From: Microthyrium microscopicum
Taxonomy: Eukaryota
Reading direction: 5' to 3'
Assembly: GCA_010405405.1 (NCBI GenBank)
Contig: MU004236.1
Span: 1,370,070-1,434,069 of the forward strand
DNA: 64,000 nucleotides
Positions 22,120 to 55,168 of this stretch are shown one piece after another; the first letter of the stretch is position 1; every line of letters starts with the position of its first letter. Below the pieces are notes generated by a model. That model was not told the DNA's origin. It did not search any database and saw only the letters and a list, made by a program, of their open reading frames with translations. A program made the translations under genes and the position numbers.

Positions 22120-23032
22120 ACGCGACTAGCGTTGAGCAGAGCCTCCTCGTTCTCATTATTCTACAGCACGCGTCTCTCTTCCTGCATATTATTTCGACCT
22201 CGATCATTCAGCCTTAGCTTCTTCAAGGAAGTGCTCTGGTTCTAGATTTCAAAGTCCTCGATATTCACCCTTGCGTCAAATCTTCGCGACTCATCCGAGC
22301 GCCTCGCGTACCCAACGCGTGCCCTTGCGCTCAAAGTCATTGTAATGGTCGACGTCTAGTCGATTCTGACAGGAATAGAATAGCTGTTTTGTGATGGCTC
22401 CAGCCAATCAAGGATCGCAACGCGGCAGTCAGAACGACATATTACCAACTTGATTGCAGAGCTTAGATGGAATATGGACATCTCTCGGCCTGGATTCATC
22501 TCCATTACTCTTTAGAACAAGAAGCACTTGCTAGGTGTTTGCAAGAGCAGGGAAAGAAGCTGACATGGTTATGTCTATGCTAAGAACCTCAACTGCGGAT
22601 GGCACTAGTATAACCAATATTCTCACTTTTTTTGGAGTGACCAAAATTCCATTGCCATTGCCCTGGAAGCTAGACTATCATGAAGAATGGAGCTTGCAAT
22701 TGGGCCTATCATTTTCCAGACCGTGGCCCCTTGTTGATCTCATTCCTCTCATGTTGATAGGAATGTGTAAACACGCGTTTTTGGGATGATGGAGTAACAT
22801 AAGGACAATAAAGCGCTTTCTTGGGTGGAAGACCTACCAAAACTCGTCAATCGCCGTTCTGACGTTCCTTTAACTGTTTTTATTCACGAAACTTGCGATT
22901 ACTTCAACCATAGACCCTCATTTTTTGGTGAGTTCATAACCTCCCAGTATGTGCAGTTCTAACAGGTCGACCTAGACACTCATTTGAACCGGTACTGGAT
23001 CCTAGGCCTCTCGATTTTAACTCGACACGCGA
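22120..23032. promoter_or_regulatory. Cluster of WCGCGW (MCB/StuA-response-like, APSES factor) motifs upstream of the giant mucin gene
   Basis: Seven matches at 22120, 22168, 22284, 22304, 22315, 22773 and 23027. Three are the perfect MCB ACGCGT. Confidence 0.45.
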
Positions 23033-23055
23033 CGAAGCATCCTTTCGCAGCCAAG

Positions 23056-29000: not shown

Positions 29001-32000
29001 CGATGTTTCGTACACGTCTGAGTTCGGAACATCGTCTTCCGATTTGACCTTTATGACCTCTGAGCTCCTCAGTCAGGCTCAGCCAAATGATACATCTATC
29101 ATGTCGATTCTTTCAGCCACGGATTGGTTGTCTGCTGAATCCTCTACGATCATTGAGTTTACCAGAACTCTATCCACTCTTTGGACAGAGACCGATGATT
29201 TTACCACTCTAACGAGCGCGAATACTGGTCTGGAGTCCTCAACGTTCATCACATCTGTTGAGTCATCGACTGCTCCTCTTGATTCCATGGCTACAAGCAT
29301 GATGACCGTCCAGACTTCGGCTGACACTGCCAGCGAGTCGAACTTGTCAGGTTCGTCTTCTGTGGAGACACCTTTTTCCAGCTTATCCGACTTGCGCAGT
29401 GGAACTTCCTCAGATGATGGCTCGGTGCTGCCCACTAGTACGACGAGTCTGGGTGCTTCCACTTCTACCGATCTATTGTCGGCTTTGTCTGTCTCTACTG
29501 CCGATTCAGCTTCTTCTGTCGAACTTCCGCCGACCAGTTTCTTCTCACCAAGTGCTGCTTCAACGGCATCATCATTTGAGACCTCTTTTACGAAAAGTAG
29601 TGACTCTTCTGGAAGTTCATCTCTGATGTCCACGTTCGATAGCGAGGCGTCGTCCGCGATTTCTCCGTCCGGGGACCTTCTCATGATTTCCTTGATAGAG
29701 ACATCCCCAACGGTGCTCTCTGATACCTCAACGATCGCTTCATTTTCTGCGACCCCCCCAGATGTGCCATCTATCACATTGTGGTCCTCTGGATTGTCCA
29801 CAACATCGCAACTGTCTGAGATATCTTCCACGCTAATATCTCAGATCTCGTCAAGCATAAGTGCTGCTTCTTTATTAGAGCTGTCCTCTGCAACATCTTC
29901 CGAGATCACTCTAGAGTCTACGGCAGGACAAAGTTCGACATCAGCTAGCCAGAATACAAATGCTGGCTCATTCCTCATCTCGTCTTTGTCGCTGTCGACG
30001 ACGAGTAGTGCCACCGACATGATAGTGTCCACCTCAGAAAAACCTGATTCCTCTGAATCCACAGGAACAACAGAATTAGGCTCCACAAAATTCTCAACAT
30101 CTCTTAATTCAGTGGCTTTCTCGGTATCGCCTAGCCAAGAGACAACGTTCTCGACATCTACTCTTCGTTTGAGTCCTGGGGACTCGATTACGTCCTCATC
30201 TTACCCTGAAATCATATCAAGCTCTTCACGCATTTCGTCTCTAGATGATTCTATCCTGAGATCGGCTTTCGCTAGTTCTGGCAGCAGTAGCAGCGAGGAT
30301 ATATCGGGATGGTCGTCGTTCTCGCCAGGTGCTAGTGGCGTTAGCTTATCGACGTTTCCTTCCCGCTCTGAGATTAGCTCGCTCAGCGTTCTTAGTTCTT
30401 CCAGCGATGTTGTCAGCTCGTCTGAAGTCTCCATGAGTGCTCCTCTAACTTCAACTGATGTTAGTTCATTCGAACCCAACTCAAGTGTGGCACCATCGAG
30501 CTCCGGTACTGAGTTGTCTAGCACTGTGACAACTTCATCCGAAGCCAGTGCATCTGCTGCGGTAGCAAGCTCTGATGTTGCTTCTGCGATCAACTCAACA
30601 AGTCCTTTGACTTCTTCATTTTTTGAGGGCAGCTCTTCGCCAACCAGTGCCACGATTTCAACAGTACTGGATTTCAGCCCATCTTATCTACCAAGCAGCT
30701 CTGACACTAGCTTGTCTACGAGCTCTATGGTGTCTTCAACCCTCGACATCAGCAGTTCTAGCAGTTTAAGCAGCTCCGAAGTCACTATCCATAGCAGCAC
30801 TTCTCAAGCTGCTACTAGCTCGGTGCTACCTACAAGCTCCGAGCTTGATTCTTCGTCTTGGTCTAGCATCGAGACGCAGACTGTTGTATTTGACTCCTCG
30901 GCTCCACTCGAGAGTACTAGTACAGGCAACTTGCCACCATATTCATATTCCTCTGCGGCCAATACTACCCAAAGTCTAGCGAAGACTTCAGGATCCTCCG
31001 AAATCATAGCTTCTGTGTCAATACTGTCAACCTCGATTTCTTCTTTTTCTGCTGTTATATTTTCGTCCAATACAGAAACACATATCTCGTCAATCGAATC
31101 CACTGTGGCAGGATTGAGCACCAGCAGCCTGATCTCAAGTCTGCCATTTTCTTCCCTAGATTCAAGCATGAACCTTACCTATGCATTGTCGACTGGAACA
31201 TCTTCCATAGACAATGCCGTCAGCTCATCTGAATCTAGTACGGGATCGAGTTCGAAGAACGGAAACCCTCGTTTCTCTGTCCTCGCCCATGGCATTGGGG
31301 TTCAGCAGCCTGCCCTCAGTTCTGCCATGTCGACAACAGGATTCAGTCTCGAAAGCGTCACATCTTCCAACTCGAGGAGTGTAGCTGTTAATCCATCTTC
31401 GAGTTTCGAAACTCGTACAAGTAGCGAGTCGCAGATTTCTCCGAGTACAGATACTCCGATATCTCCTGCGACTTCTACGATGGCAGACAGCTCATCTGCA
31501 GAAACCCAGTCTGTACCTGCATCCACGTTCACAACGATGTTTCATGTCACTACACAATCATCAACTACCACTTCAACTGCTCTGAACATATTTTCCTCAT
31601 CCAGCACATACTCTGCCTCAATCCCAACAGCATCCAGTTTAGAATCCTCAACTAATACAGCCACACCAGTTTCCGCAACCGTCACGACGTCCAGTCTGCC
31701 AGATAGCTCAACCGTAACAAGTTCAGATGCGTCCTTGCCAACGTCCTCAGGTAAGTCTATTCTCTTGTATTCTCCTGCCCAATATCCCCAATATCCCAAC
31801 ATCCTTTGTTTCAGCAAATTCGCCATCAGCATCCCTTACATCGTCTTCAGCGGACTCGAGTTCCAGCTCCGAGGATTCCAGCTCCATTACTTCCTCCGAC
31901 ACTAGCACTGCTACCAGCTCGGATATCACATCAAGCGTAACTTCCTCCGACGTCAGCACTGCTACCAGTTCGGATATCACATCAAGCGCAACTTCCTCCG

Positions 32001-35000
32001 ACGTGAGCTCTGATTCTAGCTCCGACATCATATCGAGCGCTACAACTTCCTCCGACGTAAGCTCTGATTCTAGCTCCGACATTACGTCAAGCGCCACTTC
32101 CTCCGACGTGAGCTCTGATTCTAGCTCCGACATCACATCGAGCGCTACAACTTCCTCTGATGTTAGCTCTACCAGTTCGGATATCACATCAAGCGCAACA
32201 TCCTCCGACATGAGCTCTGATTCTAGCTCCGATGTCACATCGAGCGCAACATCCTCGGACGTGAGCTCTGATTCTAGCTCTGATATTACATCGAGCGCAA
32301 CATCCTCCGACGTCAGCTCTACTAGCTCCGACATGACATCGAGCGCAACATCGTCCGACGTGAGCTCTGATTCTAGCTCCGATATGACATCGAGCGCAAC
32401 ATCCTCCGACGTCAGCTCCACTAGCTCCGACATGACATCGAGCGCAACATCGTCCGACGTGAGCTCTGATTCTAGCTCCGATATGACATCGAGCGCAACA
32501 TCCTCTGATGTTAGCTCTACTAGCTCCGATATGACATCGAGCGCAACATCGTCCGACGTGAGCTCTGATTCTAGCTCCGATATTACATCGAGCGCAACAT
32601 CCTCTGATGTTAGCTCTACCAGTTCGGATTTCACATCAAGCACAACATCATCCGATGTCAGCTCTACTAGTTCGGATATCACATCAAGCGCAACATCGTC
32701 CGACGTGAGCTCTACTAGTTCAGATATCACATCGAGCGCAGCAGCATCTTCAAGCTCCGATATTAGTTCTACGATTCCAAGCAGTACAGCAACCAGCAGC
32801 TTGGATATCAGCAGTTCCTCGAGTGTTTCCTCTTCTTTATCGTCATCTGATGTGACTGGCTCAGCGTCTTTGTCCAGCTCAGCCACTTCTTCCGATCTTT
32901 CAAGCTCAACAACCAGCATAGCAACCGCTACCAGTTCTGTTACATCCTCAGATGTGTCCAGCTCACTCACAAGCTCGGCACTTCCAAGTTCTTCAGACTC
33001 TTCAAGCCTCCCTTCTAACACGGTGTCTTCAGCGCTATCTTCAGCGACTAGCTCTGCAGCGTCGTCTTTACCAAGCAGCTCAAGCAGCATTCTCACAAGC
33101 TCCGCTACTAGCTCCGAAGTCTCAAGCTCCACAAGTTCTGGTATCTCAAGTTCCATCACTAGCTCCGCCACAAGCTCAGCTGTCACGAGTTCTGCTATCT
33201 CAAGCTCTCCGAGCCCGTCTGCTTCTATCTCGAGTTCAGTCGCAGCATCTTCGTCCTCAGGCGTCAGCTCCAGTCCATCCGCCGCTGCCTCGAGTTCGAT
33301 TGCAGCATCTTCGTCCGTAGGGGTCAGCTCAAGTCCATCTGCTTCCATCTCGAGTTCAATCGCAGCTTCTTCGTCAGTAGGGGTCAGCCCCAGTCCATCT
33401 GCCTCCATCTCGAGTTCGATTGCAGCGTCTTCGTCCGTAGGGGTCAGCTCCAGTCCATCTGCCTCCATCTCGAGTTCAATTCCAGCTTCTTCGTCCATCG
33501 GCGTCAGCTCCAGTCTATCAGCTCCTGTCTCGACTTCAGCTCCAGGCTCTTCAACGACATCCTCTCAGTTCTCGTCTCCAGTCGTTGTCGCGTCGTCGTC
33601 AATTGCATCGACTAGCGTGCTGACGAGCACTTCTTCAGGTTCCCCAAGCGCAAGCGTTGTATCGTCCAGTATTATATCATCTTCCTCGCTTGTATCCCCA
33701 TCCCCGAGCGTGATATCGTCAAGCGTTGTCGCATCATCATCAAGCATGATGGCCTCTCCTTCAGCATCATCCGGTACGTAATTGACGGGAAATTTATCCT
33801 GAGCCCCTTGCATCGGATGCGCTGAGCGCAAAAATCATGGATCTGTACTGACGTCCTTTAGCTCAATTAAGCAGCATCGCTTCGAGCCCAATCGCTTCTA
33901 GTGTAGTCTCTTCTGTTGCTGAATCATCTAGCTTGGCGACTTCGTCCCTGGCATCAAGCCCTGTGGTTTCCAGCTCTTTGGCTCCAAGTCCCTCGCCACA
34001 ATTAAGCTCAAGTCCCATTGTCAGCCCATCTTCTAGCCTGGTGGCAAGCAGTCCAGTCGCGAGCAGCTCAGTTGCAAGCAGCCCAGTCGCCAGTAGCCCG
34101 GTTGCCAGTAGCCCGGTTGCCAGTAGCCCGGTTGCCAGTAGCCCGGTTGCCAGTAGCCCGGTTGCCAGTAGCCCGGTTGCCAGTAGCCTAGTCGCCAGCA
34201 GCCCAGTTGCCAGTAGCTCAGACACCAGTAGCTCAGCAGCGAGCAGCGAGCAGGTATCCAGTCCTGTGGCAAGCAGTCCAGTTGCCAGCAGCCCAGTCGC
34301 CAGTAGCCTAGTCGCCAGCAGCCCAGTTGCCAGTAGCGAAGACACCAGTAGCTCAGCAGCGAGCAGCGAGCAGGTATCCAGCCCCGTGGCAAGCAGTCCA
34401 GCTGGTGTCTCCAGCTCCGCGGGAATATCAAGCAGTCCGATGGCAGTATCTAGTACTCCTAGTTCACCGACAAGTAATGAACAACCACCACCTAGCATTG
34501 GATCCATCAGCGTAATCATCGAGTCCTCGCCGACTCCGACATCCACCATAAGCTCATCAACAGTGGATCAATCGGCCGTTGATACAGCCTTTTCCTCAGC
34601 CACTACTGATGGACCTGTCTCAGTTATTGCTGGTAGTGCAGGCCCAACTCTGTAAGTTTCCATCTTCAATGCTTTGCAGGAGTCTTTAGCTAATATTTTC
34701 TGCAGTGGATTCTCTCCTACCGACGGCGCTACCACAGCCGCTGCAACTGTCGCTATTCCTGATGAAGTACCAACTACTCAACCAGCAAGCTTCCAAGGTC
34801 TATTGACCATAGTTGGTTTGAATACTCCAGCTAGCGCAGCGCCGACTGTAAGCGCAACGCAAACTTCCACCGAGGCGCCAGCTTCAAGCGTACAGCCAGT
34901 AAAGAAGCGTGAGGCGGCTGTTCACAATGTGGTCGCCAAAAAGCAGCAAGTCGCTAAAGCGCGACGAGCTGTTGACAAGGCTGCACAGTTTGTGGCTAGA

Positions 35001-41195: not shown

Positions 41196-43336
41196 ATGCC
41201 TGACTCATCCGCCCTCACACCCCAACGCGCGCACGCGCTCTTTGACCTCCTAGTCCACCAAAAAACCTACTTCGCCGACGTGGTACGCTTCAATCGCCCC
41301 GACGGCATCGTCGGCTACGGCCCGCCCTTTGATCCAGCAACATCCACCACCGCCCCATCATCCGCGCCCGTCCTACAAACCCTCTTATCACGCTTCATTC
41401 TCCCCCTACCTGGCGTGCGCGCCTTCACACCGACCTTTTGGGCCAATGTGCGCAAGTTGCTGGTGGAATGTGCTGGTGCGAACTTGAGTGATTCGTATGA
41501 CCATGCGGGGCTCGGTCTACGGCGCACACTAGCCGCTGGTGCGAGCGCGTTGCTGGAATATCCGGGCCGCGGTGTCTTTGGGAAGATCGCGAACAGGGAG
41601 GGGAAGGGTGAGGTGAAGGAGTATGATTTGGAGGATCCAGAAGCGTTGAAAGACGCGTGGGAGGAGTTTTTGGCACAGGCGGTGCATGGGGATTTGGTGG
41701 ATAGGGTGTTTGAGAAGGTCGCGGAGACTGATGATCTGGATCAGCATGGGAGTTTGCTGAGGGCGGCGCATGAGTATATTCTGATCCAGTAAGTTCTTGG
41801 GTATACTTTCGGGGCTTGGATAGTGATTAATGGGTGCAGCTTTGCGTCGGTGCTGCATTATATTTATGTGGAGAGTCCGGATGCGCGATATGCGCAGAAG
41901 CTTTCTTCGAATTTGCTTAAGCTCATTCCTTGGATGATGCTGAGGCAGAGTCTGCGCATCGGCAACGCGGCGAGCATGATCAATGCGGTGGTGAAACTTT
42001 TTCTTACGAAGCTTTCCTTTACCTCTTTCACAAATTGGGTGGGACTATCGAACAATCCTGATGATGGAATGAACCTCATGCAGACGTATGAATCCTCTTA
42101 ATCCTGGATGATGCATCGGGCTAACTAGTTCTAGGATAATATCGACTGTTATGGGTTGGGATGTCACAGAGTTCGAGAAAAAGCTCAAGACAATCAAAGA
42201 GTCTGAGGATATGCCTAGTGAGGACTATACCGCAAAGCTCAATGAATATGTAGGGTTTGACTACTACGTGCAGGAATCTTACAGACAAAAAAGCCGTAAG
42301 TACAGCGGTTCCAATACTAACAAATAGCGACTAAAGTTTTACAGAGGTGGAAGGGAAGTCCATTGTGACTGTAATATTCGAAGAATCCTCACTGGAACCC
42401 CTCGAAGGAGAATCACATCACGTTGCTGTTGAATATCTTGGCCTACGCTCCAAGCTACGTGACCGCGAAGTCTTGTCGAAAATCATCTGCAAGAGCAGCC
42501 CGGACATTCTCACTCAAACCATTCGCGAAGGTGTCGCCGCCTACGATCCTATATTCCGCGCTGTTCACAATGCGGTAGACCTTAGCTCTACATGTCTAGA
42601 CTTGGAAAGCTTCCTTCGGGATTTCATGAAACTCTTTGAAGCGGCACCACCCTCCAGCAATGGAACATCCACGCCAACGCCTAAAGCAACTCAAGACACA
42701 AATCTCAAAAAGAACGACGTTGGAGTAGAGCAGTTTGCCGCTGTTCTTCGCAAGCATCAACATTCTCTGCACAAATTCTTACATCAAATGGCCAAGAACG
42801 GTGGTTCCGTGACCGAAGACTACCGTACATACGCCAAGGAAGCTGCTGCACAATTAAAGTCCTCACGAAAGGAAGATACCCAACCATCTGCTGGCGACAT
42901 GACTTTAGACTTGGAAAAACTAGTCGCCGCTCTCCCCGCCGATAAGCAAAAACAAGTCCTAGAAGCAGTGGACATGTACGCCGGCTACCTAATGGCCCTC
43001 ACCAGCGTAACCGAAGACCGAGTCCGTGGCGTAGTCCAAGGCAACGCACCTCGTGCTGGACCCGGTGTCTTCCTTGCCCGATGGCAAAACCTTCTTGGCG
43101 CTACAGCTACGACTCCCACCAAGCCGAGCGGCCCAGTACGATACGGCAGCTCGAGATCTGTGCCAGAGTATGACGAGAAAGAGACAGAGCATGATGATGA
43201 TCAATGGGATAAATGGCCAAAAGCACCAGATGTCAAGATCGTTATTGATACTCTTGGCAAGGACTTTTGGAAGGTCTTGGCTGAGCAGGGAAAAGAGTAT
43301 TGGGTAGCAGAGGAAGTTCAGACAGATGTTGATTAG
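41196..43336 (+). CDS. PX-associated (PXB) / DUF3818-like domain protein
   Basis: N-terminal LTPQRAHALFDLLVH, then LSDSYD..GLG.RRTLA and LIPWMMLRQSLRIGNAASMINAVVKLFL. Introns 41789-41839, 42086-42134 and 42296-42344 splice in frame. Confidence 0.75.
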
Positions 43337-43668: not shown

Positions 43669-44010
43669 CTAAAGCTGTTTCAACCCAAAAGCCTTGCCAG
43701 TAAAAACATGACAGTTCGCATTATTTGTCAACGGCACATCCTCAAACTTTACATCTCCCGTTCCACCACACTGGCTGCTGATCAGCTGGAGATTGATGTT
43801 GCGGCCAAATAATCCCTGGCCGACGTTCAAGGTTTTGGCGGAGTGGTAGGTTTGGCCGCCAGTGACGGTGTGGCAGACTTCGGTGTTGCCTAGGTTGGCG
43901 CTTTCGATTAGGTTTTGACAGTTGGAGTCGCTGTAGACGTGGATAGTCGCTGTGTCGGCTGCGACGAGAGCGATGAGGGAAAGGGAGAGGGTGGTGAGTT
44001 GGAGCTTCAT
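43669..44010 (-). CDS. Small secreted cysteine-containing protein (113 aa, 4 Cys), candidate effector
   Basis: Signal peptide MKLQLTTLSLSLIALVAA, YSDSNC motif, Kozak-like CACCATG and upstream TATA box. Confidence 0.85.
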   Translation of the reverse strand: MKLQLTTLSLSLIALVAADTATIHVYSDSNCQNLIESANLGNTEVCHTVTGGQTYHSAKTLNVGQGLFGRNINLQLISSQCGGTGDVKFEDVPLTNNANCHVFTGKAFGLKQL

Positions 44011-44128
44011 GGTGGTGAAAGGAGTTGGTGGGAGTTCAAGTGGTAGTTTTGAAAGTTTGGAATGTTGTTAATGATTTGGAATGGCGATTGGGCTGTGATG
44101 AGATTTGTTGTGATGAACTTTGATCTGC

Positions 44129-44135
44129 TTTTATA
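44129..44135 (-). promoter_or_regulatory. TATA box (TATAAAA) of the small secreted protein gene
   Basis: TATAAAA on the minus strand ~120 bp upstream of the ATG at 44010. Confidence 0.55.
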
Positions 44136-44412
44136 CGATATGTTATGTTCAGCTGGTCTTACTTGTTTGAATGTCATGTTCCACAAACATTATGATTACT
44201 ATTCATCTCATCTTCCCGCATTCTCCCCTCAGTCAGATTCAATCCTTCATCCGGTGCGTCTTACGACGATAGACCAATTTTGAGGCCAGAGGAAACTGAG
44301 AGAGAGATATTTTGATATTTGTACGACTACCAGGAGATAAATCATTACGTACATTTCACCAGAATTTGACCAGGACTTGCCAATTTCATAAGATCCACCT
44401 GTCAAGTATCCT

Positions 44413-44640
44413 CACCACCGTAAATCAAGAGCCGGGCTTATGTGCCAAAAAAAATAAGCTGATGGTTACAGCAACTCAAGAGAACCACTGCGATGCCTGC
44501 ATTGGTGGTTGTATGGAATGGCGCTAGTGGTCAGATTGACCAATCCCAGTGAGGATCAAAAGCGATTACTTTACTAGTACCACACTGTAAAAGGGGTATT
44601 TTGGTCTTGCGCCAAAAATAAGCGGTATGGTCACTGCAAT
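44413..44640. repeat. Degenerate direct repeat, period ~167 bp
   Basis: gccaaaaaaaataagctgatggttacagcaa (44444-44474) versus gccaaaaataagcggtatggtcactgcaa (44611-44639). Both are preceded by a cac..c.gtaaa element. Confidence 0.6.
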
Positions 44641-45039
44641 TGAGCAACACAATGAGCAATGACAAATCGTTACCTGAGTAGTGCTACGGCAATGATCCAT
44701 CACGAGGCTACAGGCAATAATCAAGATAGTTTGATTCTCTATGGATTTCGTTCACACAATGGATCGCTTTTGCAGCTTATGCTCTAGAGATGCAGATTTG
44801 ATAAATATACAACAGTGATCAGTTCCATACTGTTCTCCCCGTTTATTGCACAACAGTATGCCTGAATTGTGGAACCATCAGATTTCTTCGTCTGTTTCTT
44901 GCTCTTTTCGAGTCTTTCGTTTTTTTGGTGGGCTGGAGTGATTATAAGGCTGAAATCGTGCCTCTTTACGAGCGAACCATTTACGACCAGAAGCGGGACG
45001 GAATGCCAAGTTTCCAAATGTCGGCTGCTCGACTGCAGA

Positions 45040-45924
45040 CTAGATCTTGCGAGGTGTTTGAGTTGCCAAGTTGGTTGGTGGTATGTTCTCTTTGTTGCCT
45101 GTACTTGCACGGCTGAAATCTATAGACGGGGAAACGGAGAAGCCTGCCATATCTACAGCTACTGGCTCGACAGAAGGGTAAAGAGATAAGTTCGCAAGAT
45201 CTGCTGCAGTGACATCTAGCGTTTCTTCTTCCATAGATGTATTGGAAACAGAAGGAAGTGCAGTATTGGCACTGAATTGGCCTCTACTAGTATAATTCAG
45301 AGATCGCTGGGCCTTCAGGTTCTCCACTTTCTCGAGTAGATCTTGGTGTGGCAGACAAATGAGCTTCAGGGAATATTTATAAGCGTTCCGATCCTTCAGA
45401 TGCTTGACTTCAATAGATTGGACGAGCCCATGATACAGCTTATTTTGCACATAATTCACAATTTGAGCGACATGAGATCCATGATATTCCAAGATCTCGC
45501 TCATCACTGCTCTATTGATTGCGAAATCATCATGTTCAAATTCTGGAGTAACCACGATCTCGAACCCTATGATCTGACGAATGCCCATGTGCATTGGTGC
45601 GTAGTCTACGTACCACTGCAAGCTCTTTGGACCATGAGGCAGGTTTGAATATACCTCGACCACAGTCTCAAAGTTGTGAAGTCCCCAGGTCCGGACTCTC
45701 GCAGGCGGGGGTATCTGGTGCTGCATGATAGTCCGAGTTTGAGGCTCTACGACTCTCTCGGTCAGATCAACAATCCATGCGCCGCGCAGATGCAAGAAGT
45801 CGAAGCCCTGGCCTGTTGCTTTTGCACTTGTTGGTCGGAGTTTATCGCGATTGATCATGTCTTTGATACTCAGGACACCACTTTGCTGGACAACTGCTGC
45901 CTTTTTCGTTGATGTGGAGAACAT
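45040..45924 (-). CDS. Uncharacterised tandem-family protein, paralog A (294 aa, intronless)
   Basis: Uninterrupted ORF with ACCATG start. Clear similarity to 46779-47657 (DKL.P, LR.AWIVDLT, M.HQIPP..R.R.W, ETV.E, WYV, IG.E, LY.G..QSI.V, KL.CLP). Confidence 0.85.
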   Translation of the reverse strand: MFSTSTKKAAVVQQSGVLSIKDMINRDKLRPTSAKATGQGFDFLHLRGAWIVDLTERVVEPQTRTIMQHQIPPPARVRTWGLHNFETVVEVYSNLPHGPKSLQWYVDYAPMHMGIRQIIGFEIVVTPEFEHDDFAINRAVMSEILEYHGSHVAQIVNYVQNKLYHGLVQSIEVKHLKDRNAYKYSLKLICLPHQDLLEKVENLKAQRSLNYTSRGQFSANTALPSVSNTSMEEETLDVTAADLANLSLYPSVEPVAVDMAGFSVSPSIDFSRASTGNKENIPPTNLATQTPRKI

Positions 45925-46778
45925 GGTTGTGGAATAACAAGAAATTGATGGTGCTGGTGGAACCGGTTATACAAAGTGTTGCGGAAGTTGAGCTTCGAGA
46001 AACAGAGGTGGATATTGCGGTTAGGAAGAAGTTCAAGTTCCACAATGCTTTGATATCTTAAAAGGATGAAAACCGGAGGCTCCAGATCTTCGGTCACTTT
46101 GGCGTTACTTGGCTGCCTGAAATTTCCTGTCACTACTGATGTGGCTTTATGGCCACCTCTTTGATGGTGAGGTGACTCGAGGTACTCTAGAAGTCTACAA
46201 TCTGATTAAGTTGCCTAATATATCACTTGAGGTGAATACGACAAATCTACACTCAATCGCGATTATTTTTGAAAAAGGAAACTTACTTAAATAAAGAGTT
46301 TCTTGCTTTTGAGGCAATGGAAAAAGAGAGCGACTTTATCAAGGCTCAGCTCTCTGGAGCTTTTGGTGGGTAGTGATATAAGGTGATGGCAATTTCGTAC
46401 TCTTGAAATGAACCGCTGTGTCTTACTCATTTTCAAAAGAGTCATCTGATCTATCATTTAGTAATTCTACAGCATTCCCAGACTTACCTATAAGAGTCTC
46501 TAGATATGTCATACCAATCCTGAGCCAGGCATCCCGCAAAGGCAGCCAACCGGGTGATAACATGAATGGCACTCTTCCAAAAGCGGTAATGGCTGCCAAC
46601 GCACCTTATAACGAGTATAATGACTTCTCCATCTTAATTGATAACTTTAGCGATGAACCATGCACTCGATGGGTAATAAAATGCTCTGTAGGAAAACGTA
46701 GTACGTGGTAGCCGTCGCACTTGATAGGAGCGTAACATCAATTGTGCCATCCTATTGATAGCTCATTGGGCAATATGT

Positions 46779-47657
46779 TTATATCTCCTCATTGTCCTCA
46801 TCAATAGACTTGTTGCTCCGTGACACTGACTTCTTTTTTGTTTTTGGTCGCTGGTATGGCGCAGCTCGTGACTGATTCCGAGGCGATGGTTTGGCGGGAC
46901 GAAAGGTAAGATTTGCGAATGTTGGAAGGTTGAATTCAGGACGCGAGCTAGGTTGTGCCGTCTCCTGAGATACAGTAATTAATCTGTTTGGAGGACTATT
47001 CCCTTTGTCAGCCTTCAGCATTTCCTCGTTAAAATCGGAAAGACTAGTAAGACCGAAACCCTTGAAGTCCTCTTCCGAGAGCTCAGATACCTCACGAGCT
47101 TTAGAACTCGTTGCGGTGCCAGTCACCGAGACCTTGTACCGGCGCTTTGGCAGACATACAAGCTTGACGGTGTATTTGTCAGAGTGATATGCTGCGATGC
47201 GTTCAACCTTGATCGATTGGATGTGGCCGTAGTAGAGACAATTTTCGATGTAGCTCATGAGCCTCGCAAGGATTGTGCCATGATCAGCTACCAATGTTGC
47301 CAATATTCTGGTGTTGATATCAAAGTGAAGATCTGTATACTCGGAGACAATCGTCGCTTCAACACCAATGACAGTTCGAACTGCCATGTACTGATTGACA
47401 TTGTTTACATACCAGATTAACCATCGTGGCGCCTTTGGTATATCTTCACATATCTCAATGACAGTTTCATAGCTATGCTGGCCCGAGAACCACGGCCGGA
47501 ACCGGCTTTGCGGGGGAATCTGATGGTACATCAGCACACGTTGTTGTGGTCCAGCGAACTTGTCAGTTAGGTCCACAATCCATGCATCCCTGAGCATGTG
47601 AGGTTCTGATGCCGTACCTCTCATATAAGGCGGTTGCAGCTTATCTGCGTTGACCAT
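46779..47657 (-). CDS. Uncharacterised tandem-family protein, paralog B (292 aa, intronless)
   Basis: Uninterrupted ORF paralogous to A, with a basic C-terminus RAAPYQRPKTKKK. Confidence 0.85.
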   Translation of the reverse strand: MVNADKLQPPYMRGTASEPHMLRDAWIVDLTDKFAGPQQRVLMYHQIPPQSRFRPWFSGQHSYETVIEICEDIPKAPRWLIWYVNNVNQYMAVRTVIGVEATIVSEYTDLHFDINTRILATLVADHGTILARLMSYIENCLYYGHIQSIKVERIAAYHSDKYTVKLVCLPKRRYKVSVTGTATSSKAREVSELSEEDFKGFGLTSLSDFNEEMLKADKGNSPPNRLITVSQETAQPSSRPEFNLPTFANLTFRPAKPSPRNQSRAAPYQRPKTKKKSVSRSNKSIDEDNEEI

Positions 47658-48402
47658 CTCGATGATTCAATGTAGAGAAACTAGATCTTTGGAAAGATCC
47701 CTTGCGAAGCCTGTCGCGGGAACGATGAAGAAAAATGTTTCGAGACTCGGTGGATGGTAGTTGCAATAATGAGAGAACATTCAAGTATATCAGAGGTAGC
47801 GAGATGAGAGTCGTCAAAGCCAAACAATGGTCGTTTAGCCGAGGATACCTTTGTTCTTTATGGTGCCTTGTTTGAATAAAAGTCTTTCTCAATGAATCTT
47901 TCCTTAAGTGACCATAGTGAAACAAGTCTATTGTTTGAACTGGCTGCCTAATAGTTCTAATCATATTTCAAACAAGGGAGTCAAGTAGCCATCTGAATGG
48001 CAAAATAAATTGCGTGCCCCCTTTAACTACGATGGCTGCTATACGTTAGGCTTAGCTATCGAGTGCTTCATCCACCGTAGAAGACATTCAAGATTTAACA
48101 TCCTATTGAACACATGGGCAAATATGGCACTTCTCAGTTAATGGAGGTAGTGGCAGTCATCATCGTTGATGGGAGCGGGTCGTTATCTTGCCATGGCGTT
48201 GGTTGATCATGATGATGATCCAAAAAATAAAACAAAAAGTTGCTTTTATCTGCTCATCAGATAGATCGCAACGCTAACAGAGCTAGAAGTCTAACGATAC
48301 CGAAAATGAAAGAATTAGAAGTCAACGAGAGTGAGCGTTGATTAAAGCATGGATGAGATTACATAGAACACGATGAAATGCGTCAGTGAGTTTCTCATTT
48401 CT

Positions 48403-49281
48403 TCAATGAGGAGCTGGTCGGAACACTAAGTTCGACAACATGCTCATATCAGGAGCTGCCGTTTCTTCTTGCTCAGCTTTCGCAACGTCAAAGGGCAGGT
48501 TTGTGCGCAAATCTCCAAGCTCGTAAAGTTGGCTTTGGTCTTCCTCTGACTTATTTAAGGATGATAAGCACTCGTCTTTTTGTGTCTTCGAGTCAAAGGC
48601 CGGGTCTTCAAATAGGGTTGGATACAAGACAGGGTAGTTTCTCGTTGCTCCCCAATGCATATGCGGGAACACAAATCGATCACCTGAGCGTATCGTTGCT
48701 GGATATAACATGGTAGTTTCAGAGGTCGCGGTATCAAAGGGATCGAAGAAGCTGTGGCTCAGAAACCTTGACTCTCCTGGAAGTTGGACTCGAAAGGTTG
48801 CTAGATCTGGAGACTTTTTGAAAAGTGTCACCGAAAATATGTTGAACTTTCCCGAATTGAACTTCTCCGTCTCTATCAACTGCACCAAGGAATGGCGTCG
48901 AATCTCGATCTCTCCTATTAAGCTGCGGGTTTCGGGGCCGTACTCCTGCAGACACTTGTTGAGTGTAGCTCTATTTGTTGCAAAATGAACATTCTCTAGA
49001 GATGATACCCACTGTTCTCGGAAAGCGTAAACATTCCGAAGGGTAGACGGGCTGCAACCGTTGAGGTAATAAGATAACACAGTAGGCTGATCTGAAGTGT
49101 TGTCTGCTTCATACTGCTCAATGAGTACGTCAGCCAGGTGAGTACCCCAAGGACGCGAGGTTTGTTCGTGGCAGATGCCATCGATCAGTATAGTTATGTC
49201 CGACGAATAGCCTGGTTGTAGCCTAGTCATGTCAACTACAGTTGCACCTTCAAGTCCGTCATAGGTAGAGGTGAATACCAT
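48403..49281 (-). CDS. Uncharacterised tandem-family protein, divergent paralog C (292 aa, intronless)
   Basis: ATG at 49281. It shares L.GA.VVDMT, RPWG, HFATNRA.L...L.EYG, HSLVQLIE and the C-terminal NLVFRP with A and B. Confidence 0.75.
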   Translation of the reverse strand: MVFTSTYDGLEGATVVDMTRLQPGYSSDITILIDGICHEQTSRPWGTHLADVLIEQYEADNTSDQPTVLSYYLNGCSPSTLRNVYAFREQWVSSLENVHFATNRATLNKCLQEYGPETRSLIGEIEIRRHSLVQLIETEKFNSGKFNIFSVTLFKKSPDLATFRVQLPGESRFLSHSFFDPFDTATSETTMLYPATIRSGDRFVFPHMHWGATRNYPVLYPTLFEDPAFDSKTQKDECLSSLNKSEEDQSQLYELGDLRTNLPFDVAKAEQEETAAPDMSMLSNLVFRPAPH

Positions 49282-50345
49282 ATTCAATATCTAAGAGAAC
49301 ACAATATTTCCCAACTGGCCAGGTTACGCTTTGAATGTATAGACTCTCCAATGGTGGGAAATGGAGTAGTCAATGGAGGGAAGTTAGTTGCAGAGATTGA
49401 GGAGCGAAATTATATAGAATCACCTCCCTGGAGAGTGAAAATTGCAGAGTAGGTGTTTGGAGGTGTTGACTGGCAAAGTTGTCACCGTTATTGAAAAGCA
49501 TACGTCGAATAGAACAGTGACTATTGAGGTGCTTAAAGTTGTTTAAGGTGGTCAAACCTTGACTGATATCCTCACTGTGTCCGGGTATGACTGAAATCAT
49601 GATTTGTAGGACGCCACCAAATTCTACGTGGTGAACGATACTTTTGAATTAGAATGAATTGTCAGACCGATGATGTCAATCGCCAATTTGGCTAAACTAT
49701 AAGTGTCAATCGCATGAAATGATAACTAGCATTTTCCCCATCAATTTCGCTGGCTCCCACGAACGCTGTTACTTAAGAGATGTTATATTCTCCATTGTGT
49801 TTGATAAGATGTTTGGGCCTGAGCGTCCTACATGGCAAATAAAATACTCCATACCAGAGCTTATCTTGTAGGAGCCATCAAAGTCGATGGATTGAAGCCA
49901 GTAGTTTTGTCTATCGGCTGAGGTGTAAAGAATTGAGAAGGGTTGATCAAAAAGATCCGAACTTAGACTTCTCAACACATACAAATCACCTCAGAAACAA
50001 CTCCCAAACTACAGTCATGTCTGTGAGATTTTGCAATAATCGTGCTTGTTTTGTACACAAACAGTAATATGAAAGTCTTGCAACGAAACAAGGACTTAGT
50101 GCATCGAAACAGCAATACGTCCCAGTGTATAGGCTTCATCAAAGGGTACGAAGCTAGATATACTTTGAATAGCAATCAATTCGTGTGTGCCACAAACGGA
50201 CAGATGAAAGTAAGCAGGAAACTCAACTACGTGAATATATAGGATTAATAAAAACTCAAGATCTTGATTGATGTGTAGAGGAAATGTTTGAAAATGACCG
50301 CCTGAACAAGCGATGGTATGGACAAGACTCACGCACCGAAAGCCT

Positions 50346-51398
50346 CTACAAATCCCTAACAGCCAACATAGCCGGAACCTCCGAGTCTGGACGGAAGGCC
50401 ATTCCGCGTAAGTTGGTTAGGTCGCGCTCAGCGGCTTCATAGTGAGCTGCACGGAGCTCATCAGGTAGATCTGACAGCCTTATTTTATAGTCGTTGCCGA
50501 AATTCATAGTGCATCTACAGAAACGAAGGGTACGCAACCAGTCATCAAAGACGGCCAAACTTTGATTCGCAGTGGCATTATTGTTGTATACGTTCAAAGG
50601 TGTCTCTCTTATGAAGTAGCCCTGGTGTGAGAAACATGGTGCTGGGACATCGTAAAGATTATCCAAGGTCAAATGAACCCACGTTTGCCAGGAGCCTGGA
50701 GCAACACCTGGAATTAAAGACTGTGTTTCCTTGCCATGGCCGGTGTACAGTAGTCCCGTTTTCAAGTGGAAGTGAACCATGAGTTGCCCGCCCTCCGGAT
50801 CCTCCATCCAGGCGCTAAAGCTGCCAGAAGGGCTAGGAGTGAAATCAATAGCTGTAGTCTGAATTATGCGACATACGTTGTCTTCGTCGTGACCGGAGTT
50901 GCCCAGCTCTCGGGCAATGAAATCGCGGTGACATCCAAATTTGAAACTAAGATGCTGCCTTGATTCCCGTCTACCCATTCGTCTGACTGACTCGGCGAAA
51001 TTGCCCACAAATCCAGCTGGAACTTCTATAGTGCTCAAGTCCCGAATAGTAGGTCGGTCAAGACCCGCGCGTTTGGGGTCCTGAGATTGAAACCCTAACT
51101 GGATTTTCCTTGCAAGCTCTACCCATCGTGGAGGTGCTACATCTGTTTGAGTAGCAAGCTCCCATTGCTTAGCCGGCGGAGCATCTGCTATGCGGAAAAC
51201 TCGCTGGCGACACACTGGGCAGGTATCGTTGAACTCTTGCCAATACTCAGAACATTCAATGCAGCAATTGTGTCCATATTTACATATAATTTCTCCGTAC
51301 ACCTGGGTAATGTTTAAGTTCCCGGCTTCTCGATTAGCATTAGCAAGAGTGTCCTTGCAAATTGGGCATTCCTTCTCTGGGGCGGTAGCGTCGGACAT
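50346..51398 (-). CDS. RING-finger protein (putative E3 ubiquitin ligase) with an unrecognised C-terminal domain, 350 aa
   Basis: CPIC...CKYGHNCCIEC...W...CPVCR is a RING-HC-like pattern. Intronless. Confidence 0.8.
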   Translation of the reverse strand: MSDATAPEKECPICKDTLANANREAGNLNITQVYGEIICKYGHNCCIECSEYWQEFNDTCPVCRQRVFRIADAPPAKQWELATQTDVAPPRWVELARKIQLGFQSQDPKRAGLDRPTIRDLSTIEVPAGFVGNFAESVRRMGRRESRQHLSFKFGCHRDFIARELGNSGHDEDNVCRIIQTTAIDFTPSPSGSFSAWMEDPEGGQLMVHFHLKTGLLYTGHGKETQSLIPGVAPGSWQTWVHLTLDNLYDVPAPCFSHQGYFIRETPLNVYNNNATANQSLAVFDDWLRTLRFCRCTMNFGNDYKIRLSDLPDELRAAHYEAAERDLTNLRGMAFRPDSEVPAMLAVRDL

Positions 51399-52449
51399 TT
51401 TGGTACGTTATATAAGGCGATGCCAAATCGTGCGGTAATTGGATCTATCTATGAATGCTCAAAGAAGGAACTCTCATATTAAGTACTGTTGGAGTTAGTA
51501 CTGCAGCATCGATGAATAGCATAATGATTTCTTTATGAAGCCATAAACATAATCTGAACAAAGGAAATGACGAGGAGAATATCTGTCGATATTTTACGGT
51601 ACACTTTGAGGGTGAAGATTGTTGGCGCCTCTCTCATAAGGAGGTCGATATACTGTGATTCCCAAATAGGTGATATATATATCAGGCGAAGGTATTGACC
51701 TGGTTAGATCTGTTTCTAGCGTACTCTTGTTCCAATGACGCGTTATCGTTTGATCATAAGCTGGAGTTCATGTTGGCCGCATAGGGACCATCCTTTGTTG
51801 TAGTCTCCTTTGTGCCTCCCACCCTGTCACTGGCTATTCCGTGTCCACATTTTCTTGTCTATTGATTGCTTCGTTTTTGGAGGTCAATATCTTTGTGCCG
51901 TTCTGGCATGAAAAAGACTGCGACGACTATAAAGCATCGACATCTCTTTGTATCCTGCTTTCTTTGTCAATATAATTCAATAGGTTTGTATCCAGCTGGT
52001 GTGAAGTCTTCTGCAACTACCTATATGACGAGAAGAGAAAGAACCCTTCACCCGCAGTACCCTAGCCTAGCCTAGCCTTTTCACCTGCTATGTGCAAGGA
52101 TCCCAGCCTTTTCTTAGCGTTTAGTCATGACGTCGGACCTTTCTTTAGTCTGTGCACACTGGTAGTTTGTGCGGGGAAGGAACTCGAGTCCTGCCTTCCT
52201 TTTTCTCAACGTCTCACCAAGAGATAGCTGAAAGTTGTACATGTTCAATGTTTCATCTCACCACCATACCACCATACCGCCAAATCTCCTCAACCCCTCT
52301 CCCCCCTCTCCTCAGTGCTCCTCTTCAATTCACACCCTCCTTGAATTGAAGCACCACATTATCATTCGTGGTCTTCTGTCTACACCAATCCTAAACCCGG
52401 CGCGCTCTCCGCGCATCGCCGACCAAAACCCACTATCATACACCACACC

Positions 52450-53837
52450 ATGTTAACCTCCTCACTACCCATCGTGCCCACCACCCCTCCAAACCACAAT
52501 CACCCATCTGATCCCTCTTCTGCTCCTCCTCCCAATCGGCGCCTGTGGTCCTCCCCCGCCATTAGCGACTACTTTTCCGGCGACGAGACCGCCAGCTTCA
52601 CACTCTCCCCGCCTGCGCCAAGCTTCAAGTCCGCCGCAACCTTCGCCGAGAACGAATTGCCAAAAGAGTCGACGAAGACGGATTCAACTCGCAAATTTGA
52701 TCCGCCGGCTGGGCTGGTTCGCGCACTTAGCACCTCCCTCAATGTCGAAGCACAAATGTCGCGCGCGGCGCAAAGCCAGCGCCTATTGTTGATGCGCTTG
52801 AATGCGGTCGGACGCGCGATTGTACAAGCAGATTTGTCTGAAGTGCACTGTGAACGGCTGGCGGTGGATGTTAGCCGGCTTGAATCGACGTTGGCGGCGC
52901 CGGATGCACAGAGCCGGGAGCCGGCGGAGATTGCCGAGTCGGGTTTATTCGATGAAGAGGAGGAAGATGAGGAGGATGATACGCTATCGAAGGTTGTGGA
53001 AGAGGAGGAACCTGAGAGTGAGACATTGAATCAGGCCGAAGAAAAAGAAGAGCCAGAAGTAGCGCTCACTGCGGAGATATCACTGGCCGAACTGGAGAGG
53101 GCTCAGATAAAGCGCCAAGAAGCTGCGGAGTTGATTGCACGGGTCACAAAATCTGCTGAAGAATTGAGGGAAAGATATCGTGAGATGAAGGTATGTTTTC
53201 TCCTCATGCGTAAAAGATTGTAAGCTAATTGTTTCAGCACGTCAATGACATTGCAACATCCAAACTCGAAGCAGCCGCCAACGAGATATTTCGATTACGA
53301 CAAGAAAACCAAACTCTGAATTCCGACGACAAGAATTCCGACCTTCTGTATCTTCGACTGCGGCTAAACAATCTCGAGGAACGAGCAAAGCAGGGTCTGG
53401 GCCGTAAGAGACAGGAAGAACTTGTCGACAGCATCGAAAAGCTCAGCATTGAGAGTAGTCCCAAGCGGCAAGAAAGTCGGGATACTGGTCATGGAGCAAG
53501 CCGATCTCCAGAGGCCACCATGACGAACAGCATAAACGCAGACTATCAGTTCGATGTGGAAGAACCAAGAAAGATCAACGGACATGCATATCCTAGCTAT
53601 CGGCATCGGTCACTTCCAGAAGACGTGTTTGGATGCAATGATGAACCGGACGATAAGATGGCCAATGACGGCCTTTCCAAGGATGATGAGGAAGACGAGG
53701 ATGAAAGTAAGATTGGGAATAATAAGATTACTTCTTCCCATGATGAGGAAGATGAGAGTAAGCCCCTTACTCCCTGGCAACAACTTTGGGATGGCATATC
53801 GGATTTCGTTGGCATCCACGATTACTACAGCGAGTAG
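52450..53837 (+). CDS. Hypothetical acidic coiled-coil protein
   Basis: Intron 53191-53237 (GTATGT..GCTAAT..CAG) joins the 257-aa and 202-aa ORFs in frame. C-terminal TPWQQLWDGISDFVG motif. Confidence 0.75.
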
Positions 53838-54327
53838 CTGTATGATCATTGGTGAACACTTACGAGATTGCTCCTTGAATCTGCAGCATGCAAGCGATGT
53901 CTGGCTGGCGTTTTGTACTGGAGTCTGGAATATGATACCCCTTTGCTTTGATGGACGGATTGTTGGGTATTTTGTACCCTTCACACTTGGTTGCTTGAAG
54001 CAATGTTCTTGCATGTTGTTTATACTACTAGTAAGTAATGTCTCAATAGAAGATCCGCGAAATAAGTTTCAATGGCTGTCAATTGTACTGTCCATGTTTT
54101 TCAAGGTGATCGGCGCTTTTACTTGAGCTCTATATACAGTAGCCTCTGGCCGGGTTCAGGGTCCAACCTTCAGCCTACAATTGCGGGGCATCTCAACACC
54201 ATGCATCCCATTGACCCCTCTATCACCACTTATCGTTCTCTCGTGCTTGACTCAAGACCCATTTGATCTTAAAACTTTCCATAGTACCAATCGACCCCCC
54301 TTCTATCATCAAGTCACGCCTGTCAAC

Positions 54328-55168
54328 ATGGCCACTGCTCACTCCCACGACAATGGCCATACCCACGACCACGGTGCCAACGATCACGGCCATACCCACG
54401 AGCAATATACGTCTGCTGGCTCCTATCTAGGTCGCGAACCACCCATCATCACCGGCCGCGAATGGGCCGACCGCGCTTTCACAATCGGCATCGGCGGGTT
54501 AGTTTTCAAGCTCGGCGTGATGCCTAGCTCGGGATGTTTACTGACAACAACCCCATAGCCCAGTAGGTTCCGGCAAAACCGCCCTCATGCTCGCCCTCTG
54601 CCGTGCCCTCCGCGACCGCTTTAACATCGCCGCCGTGACCAACGACATCTTCACCCGCGAAGACTCTGAATTCCTCGTCCGCCACTCTGCCCTCCCCGCC
54701 GAACGTATCCGCGCAATCGAAACTGGCGGCTGTCCCCACGCTGCCGTTCGCGAAGACATCTCCGCAAATCTCGCCGCTCTAGAAGACCTACATGCGCAAT
54801 TCGGCACAGATTTGTTGCTTATTGAGAGTGGAGGGGACAATTTGGCGGCAAATTACTCGAGGGAGCTGGCGGACTATATCGTGTATGTGATTGATGTAGC
54901 TGGCGGAGATAAGGTGCCGAGAAAAGGTGGACCGGGCATTACGCAGAGCGACTTGCTGGTGGTGAATAAGACTGATCTGGCCGAGGCTGTGGGTGCAGAT
55001 TTGGGTGTTATGGAGAGGGATGCGGGACGGATGAGAGAGGGAGGGCCAACGGTGTTTGCGCAAGTTAAGCATGGGGTGGGTGTGGAGGCGATCATTACAC
55101 TGATTTTGAGCTCGTGGAAGGCGAGTGGAGCGACGCAAGCGGAGAAGTTGCGCAAGGAGCAATCGTAG
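54328..55168 (+). CDS. ureG: Urease accessory GTPase UreG
   Basis: His-rich N-terminus, [16 protein letters not shown] across intron 54498-54558, then [42 protein letters not shown]. Confidence 0.97.

Follow-up and report, generated by a model that had tools for sequence, protein, structure and literature searches.

Substrate adaptors of E3 ligases, such as the F-box and BTB/MATH proteins, form lineage-specific arrays of tandem, fast-diverging paralogues. Among Dothideomycetes, ~1,950 unique gene clusters have been counted per newly sequenced species, and only 8.6% of the unique genes have a Pfam domain (PMC7082219); as far as the available part of that survey extends, it is usual for fungi of this class to carry species-unique genes that lack Pfam domains. 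PY nuclear localization signals (PY-NLSs), in the available part of their description, combine a disordered basic region, an N-terminal basic or hydrophobic epitope, and a C-terminal R/H/K-x2-5-PY, and their basic subclass is the one taken by yeast Kap104p (PMC2408616).

Three of the genes described here (A, B, and C) resemble the orphan clusters of Dothideomycetes, as these appear in the accessible portion of the survey, in having no Pfam domain and no relatives outside the species, in their ordinary length and native composition, and in being annotated as predicted proteins only (PMC7082219). They differ from such clusters in forming an old tandem triplet, 26-39% identical, with a recognizable tail module. 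With the F-box and BTB/MATH arrays they share the arrangement of tandem, fast-diverging paralogues beside ubiquitin machinery, here a neighboring RING gene (D); however, Pfam detects neither F-box, BTB, or MATH nor any other adaptor domain in them, and a link to D would be hypothetical.

The four genes lie on the minus strand of a 64,000-nucleotide stretch of the Microthyrium microscopicum genome (hereafter the window), as co-oriented ATG-to-stop ORFs of 294, 292, 292, and 350 aa (Table 1). A sequence-only reading had reported four co-oriented ORFs at these places, spaced ~1.6-2.1 kb apart; the start-to-start distances are indeed 1733, 1624, and 2117 bases, and the peptide strings quoted in that reading are all present in the translations. 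Such ORFs exceed chance expectation: when 44001-52500 was Markov-shuffled 300 times, the longest frame free of stops had a mean of 140 and a maximum of 258 codons. That A-D are intronless is taken from ORF continuity alone, the coverage of these genes by RNA contigs being too poor to show it. The flanking genes do contain introns, as had been proposed, the RNA contigs of run X6 being spliced there at five GT..AG joints (41788-41840, 42085-42135, 42295-42345, 53188-53236, and 54496-54558). By CDS G+C, GC3 (0.47-0.49), and codon usage (codon-adaptation index 0.82-0.84, against 0.81-0.85 for the conserved genes of the window), the clustered genes are native; the 44-52 kb stretch as a whole has a G+C of 0.43-0.45, below its flanks, because of its long spacers and not its coding sequences.

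Table 1. Features of the four-gene locus, in window coordinates.
Feature	Position	Strand	Evidence
Gene A, 294-aa ORF: ~170-aa core (residues 23-194) and tail, premature TAG	45040..45924	-	
In-frame TAG (within ATC TAG TCT) that shortens A compared with B	45040..45042	-	
A post-stop extension: 52 sense codons (44884-45039) and TGA; PTFGNLAFRPA, RFQPY, KKRKTRK, ends EEI	44881..45039	-	
45-nt intron of antisense spliced RNA over A 3' end; + strand signals (GTATGT...CTGAA...TAG)	45081..45125	+	joint 45079->45125
Gene B, 292 aa; sole copy with core and complete tail	46779..47657	-	
B tail module (residues 245-292) with PTFANLTFRPA, then a basic linker, RAAPY, a patch KTKKK, and ...NEEI as acidic end	46782..46925	-	
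Short multi-copy repeat upstream of B	47997..48092	.	excess depth, loose ends, diverged contigs in X2/X4
Gene C, 292 aa; most diverged copy	48403..49281	-	
C end: LSNLVFRPAPH motif, stop directly behind	48406-48438	-	
Short multi-copy repeat upstream of C	49737..49797	.	~5x depth in DNA runs; in run X6 too
Gene D, 350 aa: N-terminal RING and ~280 aa without detectable relatives	50346..51398	-	
NLRGMAFRP in D tail, residues 329-337; possible counterpart of A/B/C tail motif	50388..50414	-	shuffle test, post hoc pattern
C3HC4 RING finger of D, residues 11-63	51210..51368	-	ligand regex, Pfam models, Hrd1 alignment

A and B are 39% identical over 174 aa (E 5e-48) and A and C 26% identical over 149 aa (E 7e-10), while B aligns with C at E 6e-5. 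The C-A and C-B scores were matched by 0/300 shuffles in shuffle controls, and a profile of the three cores matches only A, B, and C among the 1239 window frames of at least 30 aa. These scores bear out the common ~170-aa core that had been proposed, including the significant alignment of C with the other two, and on such alignments A, B, and C are true paralogues of one family. No DNA-level repeats were found between the copies, so the duplication appears to be old. At codon positions 1/2/3, the nucleotide identities are 0.55/0.68/0.35 (A-B), 0.36/0.56/0.27 (A-C), and 0.44/0.49/0.29 (B-C), and dS between the copies is saturated; this pattern of divergence shows long purifying selection. Selection despite divergence had previously been argued from the intactness of all frames. 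The codon-position pattern upholds the selection, but the premise is wrong for A, which has an in-frame TAG with 52 codons behind it. A, B, and C are real genes, old tandem copies maintained by selection, and because the copies are only 26-39% identical, the family is an old one rather than a gene newly arisen de novo.

The core, in profile and sequence searches, matches no described family among the libraries used, in agreement with the earlier failure to recognize a domain. Pfam returned no family for A, B, or C at E <= 0.01 (best Metal_resist, E 0.087, 13.4 bits against a cut-off of 29.2), and nothing significant was found for the core in NCBIfam (best E 0.097), PHROGs (best E 0.17), PADLOC (best E 0.016, over 27 residues), or PDB sequences (best profile E 0.21). 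A true relative was absent among the 1.84 billion representative proteins searched, and 0/43 pattern matches in viral contigs were confirmed as relatives. The structure prediction for the core was not confident (pLDDT 41.9), and VIA-align gave a best Z of 4.7 (POTRA domains), with 0/48161 chains at Z of at least 5. An atlas search with A, for which the model had a pLDDT of 0.40, listed phage tail-tube-like clusters at TM 0.48-0.55 and a feature score of 0.92, with 157 features in common, under the tool's mark of 170; a phage tail-tube-, Dit-, or CIS-tube-like fold for A is an atlas lead only, from low-pLDDT models, and PHROGs gave nothing for it. With a 19-residue hydropathy maximum of at most 1.08, the A, B, and C products are predicted to be soluble and to lack a signal peptide or membrane segment. 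The trio had been called lineage-specific, and no relatives were indeed found, but this status is less striking because the last exon of a flanking gene has a nearest database relative only 30% identical and because species-unique genes are commonplace in this fungal class, to the extent covered by the available part of the survey (PMC7082219). The host lineage of M. microscopicum is sparsely sampled, and the apparent restriction of the family to it may equally reflect poor sampling.

The tails, earlier described as divergent and of low complexity, are not only such. Those of B and of A (behind its stop) share a conserved PTF-x-NL-x-FRPA, an R-x2-PY, and a K/R patch. The A extension is 40% identical to the B tail over 47 aa (BLASTP, E 3e-7), both ending in EEI, and it retains a coding pattern, with codon-position identities of 0.59/0.70/0.34. 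The near-equal lengths of the three products (292-294 aa), to which attention had been drawn, are therefore for A a coincidence of truncation; the stop itself is likely to be recent, because no further lesion is present in the extension. Across the TAG, no differences are seen in the contigs of runs X2 and X4, with the limit that these derive from the same sample as the probable source and are not independent. Downstream of the C stop, nothing tail-like was found. R-x2-PY occurs in two sequences only, the A extension and B, in aligned columns, and C and D are without it. Both occurrences agree with the C-terminal R/H/K-x2-5-PY rule, and both have basic residues ahead of the PY, the A extension containing 12 K+R against 7 D+E and the B tail having a net charge of +2 and 44% S/T/P/N/Q/G. 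These two tails look like a PY nuclear import signal, and the products are probably nuclear proteins. The likeness to PY-NLS cargoes of Kap-beta2/Kap104p, as given in the available part of that source, lies in basic residues followed by R-x2-PY within a putatively disordered tail (PMC2408616); the A extension and B differ from them in an extra conserved hydrophobic PTF-x-NL-x-FRPA ahead, and theirs is a predicted signal only. This motif, present in C and D without the PY part, may have another purpose.

On balance, and with modest confidence, we favor an ordinary lineage-restricted tandem family, triplicated long ago, whose ancestral protein would have been imported into the nucleus, with the RING gene separate and its link to the family unproven. 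A taxonomically restricted family of a filamentous ascomycete would have undergone tandem triplication, each copy comprising an N-terminal alpha/beta domain of ~170 aa followed by a disordered tail. The full-form tail (B, and A if read past its TAG) would run from PTF-x-NL-x-FRPA through a basic linker, R-x2-PY, and a K/R patch to an acidic ...EEI end, and would constitute a PY-NLS belonging to the basic subclass and followed by a classical basic patch. As far as such short motifs can suggest, the ancestral protein would have entered the nucleus, with Kap104/transportin as its probable importer. The copies would since have diverged, B retaining the whole module, C stopping directly behind FRPA, and A either having lost the module late by nonsense mutation or requiring stop read-through to make it. 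If so, the family would be one of roughly two thousand species-unique clusters per Dothideomycete genome, going by the accessible portion of the survey (PMC7082219), and of modest value as such. It would nevertheless be a clear instance of an orphan tandem family that is old and under selection and whose targeting module can be read. Its paralogues would differ in having gained or lost this module, in one case through a very recent nonsense mutation, and would thus potentially offer a simple case of sub-localization divergence among orphan paralogues. Greater weight would attach to it only if the RING link were real, or if the core were a new fold with relatives elsewhere.

Gene D had been read as encoding a RING, and a complete C3HC4 is present at residues 11-63: the pattern C-x2-C-x9-39-C-x1-3-H-x2-3-C-x2-C-x4-48-C-x2-C, with eight Zn ligands, occurs in full in 1/381 window frames of at least 60 aa. 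Pfam scores are 23.7 bits for zf-C3HC4_3 (E 4.1e-5, cut-off 27) and 20.8 bits for zf-C3HC4 (E 3.6e-4, cut-off 21), and residues 8-68 align with the yeast Hrd1 RING (6f98/6vjz) at E 0.0021, with the ligand columns aligned. D is like C3HC4 RING-finger E3 ligases in its eight metal ligands in RING spacing, the yeast Hrd1 RING being the closest solved sequence. Unlike Hrd1, it is of HC and not H2 type and has no membrane segments, and unlike known C3HC4 RING E3s, it has ~280 residues without known relatives and scores, with significant E-values, just under the Pfam curated cut-offs. A word-indexed search, which with A did not return even B, detected no relative of D, and the single-sequence structure model (pLDDT 35.0) was unusable. 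D is a predicted orphan C3HC4 E3, separate from the trio. As a candidate fourth paralogue of A, B, and C it was rejected, with BLASTP E of 1.1 or worse, an hhalign probability of 0.2% (E 0.37), and Smith-Waterman scores that did not exceed those of negative controls and that 475, 875, and 33 of 1000 shuffles equalled or surpassed.

It is unlikely, though the genes are adjacent and co-oriented, that they constitute a RING-centered module in which D is the E3, A, B, and C are substrate adaptors, substrates, or regulators, and NL..FRP is a docking site or degron. The links of D to the trio are this adjacency, a co-orientation that four genes would have by chance in 1 in 8 cases, and a weak post hoc tail motif; D is also as orphan as A, B, and C by the one search made. 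NL-x(1-4)-FRP stands near the C-terminus of all four products (behind the stop in A) and arises in 141/100000 D shuffles, 19 of these in the last 45 residues, but the pattern was set after seeing D, where it needs a 3-residue insert; if real, the motif would be an argument for some link of the trio with the RING gene. Between the tails of C and D there is a weak alignment of 30 residues, with a score that 33/1000 shuffles reach and that lies inside the negative-control range (16 to 150 of 300). The body of D is unrelated to A, B, and C, and no upstream words are common to the four genes beyond chance, so the earlier idea that the family and a ubiquitin ligase make up a module is not supported. 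We consider it rather improbable that the four genes form a self-contained, lineage-specific ubiquitin module with a new, triplicated ~170-aa domain, in which NL-x-FRP would dock all products on the same partner or mark A, B, and C as D substrates, and gain or loss of the PY-NLS tail (the A stop, the short end of C) would switch nuclear import.

The favored reading, that of an old and selected tandem family, must also be weighed against decay, in which a formerly functional family of dispensable, young-lineage genes would now be contributing little and be in the course of loss. The premature TAG of A, the end of C right after FRPA, and the antisense spliced RNA overlapping the 3' end of A (one RNA contig of run X6, depth 3.7) are consistent with this. 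It is nonetheless a fairly improbable account, given that all three cores stand in open frames of 292-294 codons with saturated third and conserved first and second positions, that B is complete, and that the stop in A would be recent. A genetic-conflict element, such as a spore killer or an allorecognition system, derived from fast-diverging tandem paralogues would share with the trio such general features as tandem, lineage-specific copies, strong divergence, and one nonsense-mutated copy; it is very improbable, since HET, NLR, toxin-like, and membrane features are absent and the divergence, as far as readable, points to purifying rather than diversifying selection. Hardly credible is an origin of the genes as cargo carried by, or a remnant left from, a mobile element or virus that had inserted among conserved genes. 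Such an origin might be suggested by the low G+C, the repeats and weak contig join near B and C, and the atlas listing for A, but it is opposed by the native coding composition, the absence of a RIP signature and of terminal or direct repeats bounding the region, the lack of any Pfam family (transposase, RT, and viral domains included) in the 64 other frames of 43672-53220, the unconfirmed viral-contig matches, the negative PHROGs search, and the low-confidence model and sub-threshold feature count behind the atlas matches.

The two short multi-copy repeats upstream of B and C have no tRNA or Rfam match. Positions 48068 and 49739, on either side of C, are joined in one contig that stems from another part of the genome, with a shorter side of 29 letters at 80% likeness, flagged as weak.

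The four co-oriented reading frames described in the sequence-only reading, the paralogy of three of them (A, B and C) and the RING domain of the fourth (D) are real, but copy A proves to be truncated rather than intact. The starts of A and B, B and C, and C and D lie 1733, 1624 and 2117 bases apart, and all of the peptide strings previously quoted for A, B and C are found in their translations. Across 300 Markov shuffles of positions 44001–52500 the longest frame without a stop had a mean of 140 codons and a maximum of 258; four frames of 292–350 codons are therefore not a product of chance. The cluster sits among conserved eukaryotic genes (GYF, phospholipase D, mitochondrial-type Phe-tRNA synthetase, dynactin p150, PX/DUF3818 and GH28), and GT..AG introns are evident on either side of it in spliced RNA contigs from sequencing run X6, which is taken to be RNA by guess, no run being on record as such. 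The cluster ORFs have a GC3 of 0.47–0.49, a codon-adaptation index of 0.82–0.84 (against 0.81–0.85 for the conserved genes of the window) and normal RIP indices; the G+C of the region falls below that of its flanks because of the long spacers, which have a G+C of 0.40–0.45. None of the 64 other frames of at least 50 aa across 43672–53220 matched a Pfam family at E ≤ 0.01, and no transposon or viral remnant is thus hidden in that interval. The feature is ordinary for this class of fungi.

Genes and multi-copy elements of the cluster
Feature	Position	Strand	Description
Gene A	45040–45924	-	ATG-to-stop ORF, 294 aa
Gene B	46779–47657	-	ATG-to-stop ORF, 292 aa
Gene C	48403–49281	-	ATG-to-stop ORF, 292 aa
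Gene D	50346–51398	-	ATG-to-stop ORF, 350 aa
Multi-copy element	47997–48092	.	Upstream of B; ~1.7x DNA-run depth
Multi-copy element	49737–49797	.	Upstream of C; ~5x DNA-run depth

A failure of C to align with the other two copies had been named as evidence against the family, and the reverse was found: A and C share 26% identity over 149 residues (E 7e-10) and B and C align at E 6e-5, while for A and B the figures are 39% over 174 residues (E 5e-48). When a profile built on all three cores was run against the 1239 window frames of at least 30 aa, it matched A, B and C alone (next E 0.041), and no DNA-level repeats linking the copies were found. With dS saturated (NG86 returns -1 and LWL85 fails), nucleotide identity by codon position was used in place of dN/dS; at positions 1/2/3 it is 0.55/0.68/0.35 for A–B, 0.36/0.56/0.27 for A–C and 0.44/0.49/0.29 for B–C. 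Third positions are randomised and first and second positions kept, a pattern that points to old duplicates under purifying selection on the protein and bears out the selection earlier suspected on these frames. A and C open with M(V)F(S)TST, and B does not; just 5' of B's ATG (47641–47700, minus strand) an out-of-frame ...SSFSTL..., too short to be called a frameshift, may be what is left of the ancestral N-terminus.

The statement that all frames are intact is wrong for A, where a premature TAG (45040–45042) cuts off a B-like tail. Beyond the TAG the same frame stays open for 52 sense codons before it meets a TGA; this extension (A-ext) aligns with the tail of B at 40% identity over 47 residues (E 3e-7), both end in ...EEI, and the codon-position identity of 0.59/0.70/0.34 is a coding pattern. 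The alignment, common ending and coding-type divergence show that, barring read-through, the TAG arose late in a gene that once had ~347 codons. A TAG followed by T is not known to be a context prone to read-through. Contigs of two runs from the probable source sample agree on the TAG, although they are not independent of the assembly. C stops directly after its FRPA motif, and no tail-like sequence was found 3' of its stop. The near-equal lengths of the three proteins stand as described but are partly coincidence, A being truncated. Within A's 3' end, 45 nt (45081–45125, plus strand) are skipped by one low-depth X6 RNA contig; the boundaries are canonical on the plus strand (GTATGT...CTGAA...TAG), which indicates a spliced transcript antisense to A's tail, and the splice leaves A's TAG in place.

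The tails, described earlier as divergent and low in complexity, are more than that: a conserved [PTF]-x-NL-x-FRPA motif is common to A-ext, B and C. After FRPA, A-ext and B carry basic residues, an aligned R-x2-PY (RFQPY and RAAPY), a K/R patch (KKRKTRK, detected in A-ext; KTKKK, read from the sequence of B) and an acidic end. In PMC2408616, a PY-NLS is defined as a disordered basic region with an N-terminal basic/hydrophobic epitope and a C-terminal R/H/K-x2-5-PY, and the basic subclass is taken by yeast Kap104p; the A-ext and B tails fit the rules as given there. No signal-peptide or membrane-helix segment was found in the proteins (maximum 19-residue hydropathy 1.08). From the tails and the lack of a hydrophobic segment, we infer that nuclear import would be the fate of the full-length family protein, and that the signal for it would have been lost from C and from A as encoded. 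The locus most likely holds, then, a nuclear-targeted family whose copies differ in keeping the import tail.

By sequence comparison, this family appears to lie outside described families while being under selection. The A/B/C core gave nothing significant in Pfam, NCBIfam, PHROGs, PADLOC or PDB sequence profiles. When 1.84 billion representatives were searched exhaustively with HMMER, the hits were A, B and C and five long repeat proteins (533–1805 aa); the five were rejected on inspection of their sequences, each holding 5–8 stretches that individually cover 35 to 56 profile positions and inflate the score by repetition. The earlier impression that the core belongs to no characterised family is upheld across these databases. 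A word-indexed search of 5.8 billion clusters with A returned A alone (of 648 candidates), at a reach so short that the same query missed B, and pattern matches were confirmed in none of 71 cases in metagenome contigs and none of 43 in viral contigs. For the last exon of the flanking PX gene, the closest database relative shares just 30% identity, which indicates a very thinly sampled lineage, and the absence of A/B/C relatives accordingly does not mean much. The AlphaFold2 core model, built from the three-sequence alignment, has a pLDDT of 41.9, and VIA-align of this model against 48161 solved chains gave none at Z ≥ 5 (best 4.7, POTRA domains); with models of such low pLDDT and no chain at Z 5, the fold cannot be assigned. 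Atlas leads for A (phage tail-tube, Dit and DNA_circ_N) come from neighbours based on a model of pLDDT 0.40 with feature overlap below the tool's mark, and received no backing from PHROGs or the viral-contig scan (0/43). Among the literature matches listed under the species name, no work on this locus appears.

The neighbouring gene D carries a complete C3HC4 ligand pattern at residues 11–63, the sole match among 381 window frames. It scores E 4.1e-5 and 3.6e-4 against Pfam RING models, just under the curated cut-offs, and E 0.0021 against the yeast Hrd1 RING. Nothing matches the other ~280 residues, a word-indexed search with D returned D alone (of 3408 candidates), an atlas search gave no usable match, and the model of D alone (pLDDT 35.0) is unusable. 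The orphan status of D is weakly founded, since a search of this type, run with A, failed to recover B.

That A, B and C serve as adaptors or substrates of D as a RING ligase is unsupported: the proposal draws on adjacency, orientation and a single weak motif. D as a further paralogue was rejected by BLASTP of its body (E 1.1 or worse), by hhalign (E 0.37) and by Smith-Waterman scores that 475, 875 and 33 of 1000 shuffles reached (controls: negatives 16–150 of 300, positives 0/300). The motif, NLRGMAFRP, lies 22 residues before the C-terminal end of D; the loose NL..FRP pattern, written after seeing D, occurs in 141 of 100000 shuffles of the protein. No words are common to the regions upstream of A–D beyond chance; one 9-mer occurs in three of the four (null mean 0.3), a count equalled in 53 of 200 nulls. 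A predicted complex of D and B scored 0.00 against a mark of 0.34, which, with no alignment used and the partner fold uncertain, is no evidence either way. The genetic-conflict roles also proposed are unsupported.

Run X6 is spliced and exact on the flanks and leaves the cluster almost uncovered save for low-depth pieces, which says nothing on expression. Run X5, from another sample, contains parts of D and the flanks as exact matches and none of A–C, at a depth (2–4.5) that makes such gaps meaningless. The two multi-copy elements sit 340–520 bp upstream of B and C, have diverged copies on other contigs, and match no tRNA or RNA family in ARAGORN and Rfam. In one contig from another part of the genome, 48068 is joined to 49739 across gene C; the join is weak, with 29 letters on its shorter side.

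Directly beside A, positions 43669–44010 (minus strand) encode a protein of 113 aa that has a hydrophobic leader at its N-terminus, four cysteines and no Pfam family, a candidate small secreted protein that is covered by a contiguous X6 RNA contig at high word depth. Beyond D, a spliced, well covered gene at 52228–55000 (plus strand; introns 53188–53236 and 54496–54558) has an acidic product without a Pfam family; its 5' end is ~830 bp from D's start, and the two genes may share a divergent promoter region. Farther away, a very large open frame (2,981 codons; 22963–31905, plus strand, running on to ~33781) has a signal-peptide-like start, a weak WSC domain, 29.5% Ser and 10.5% Thr, and is followed by tandem arrays of 51/99-nt and 60-nt units at 31892–32740 and 33218–33538. 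Its product has the look of a mucin-like cell-wall or adhesin protein, and the frame accounts for the strong negative GC and AT skew between 24 and 34 kb.
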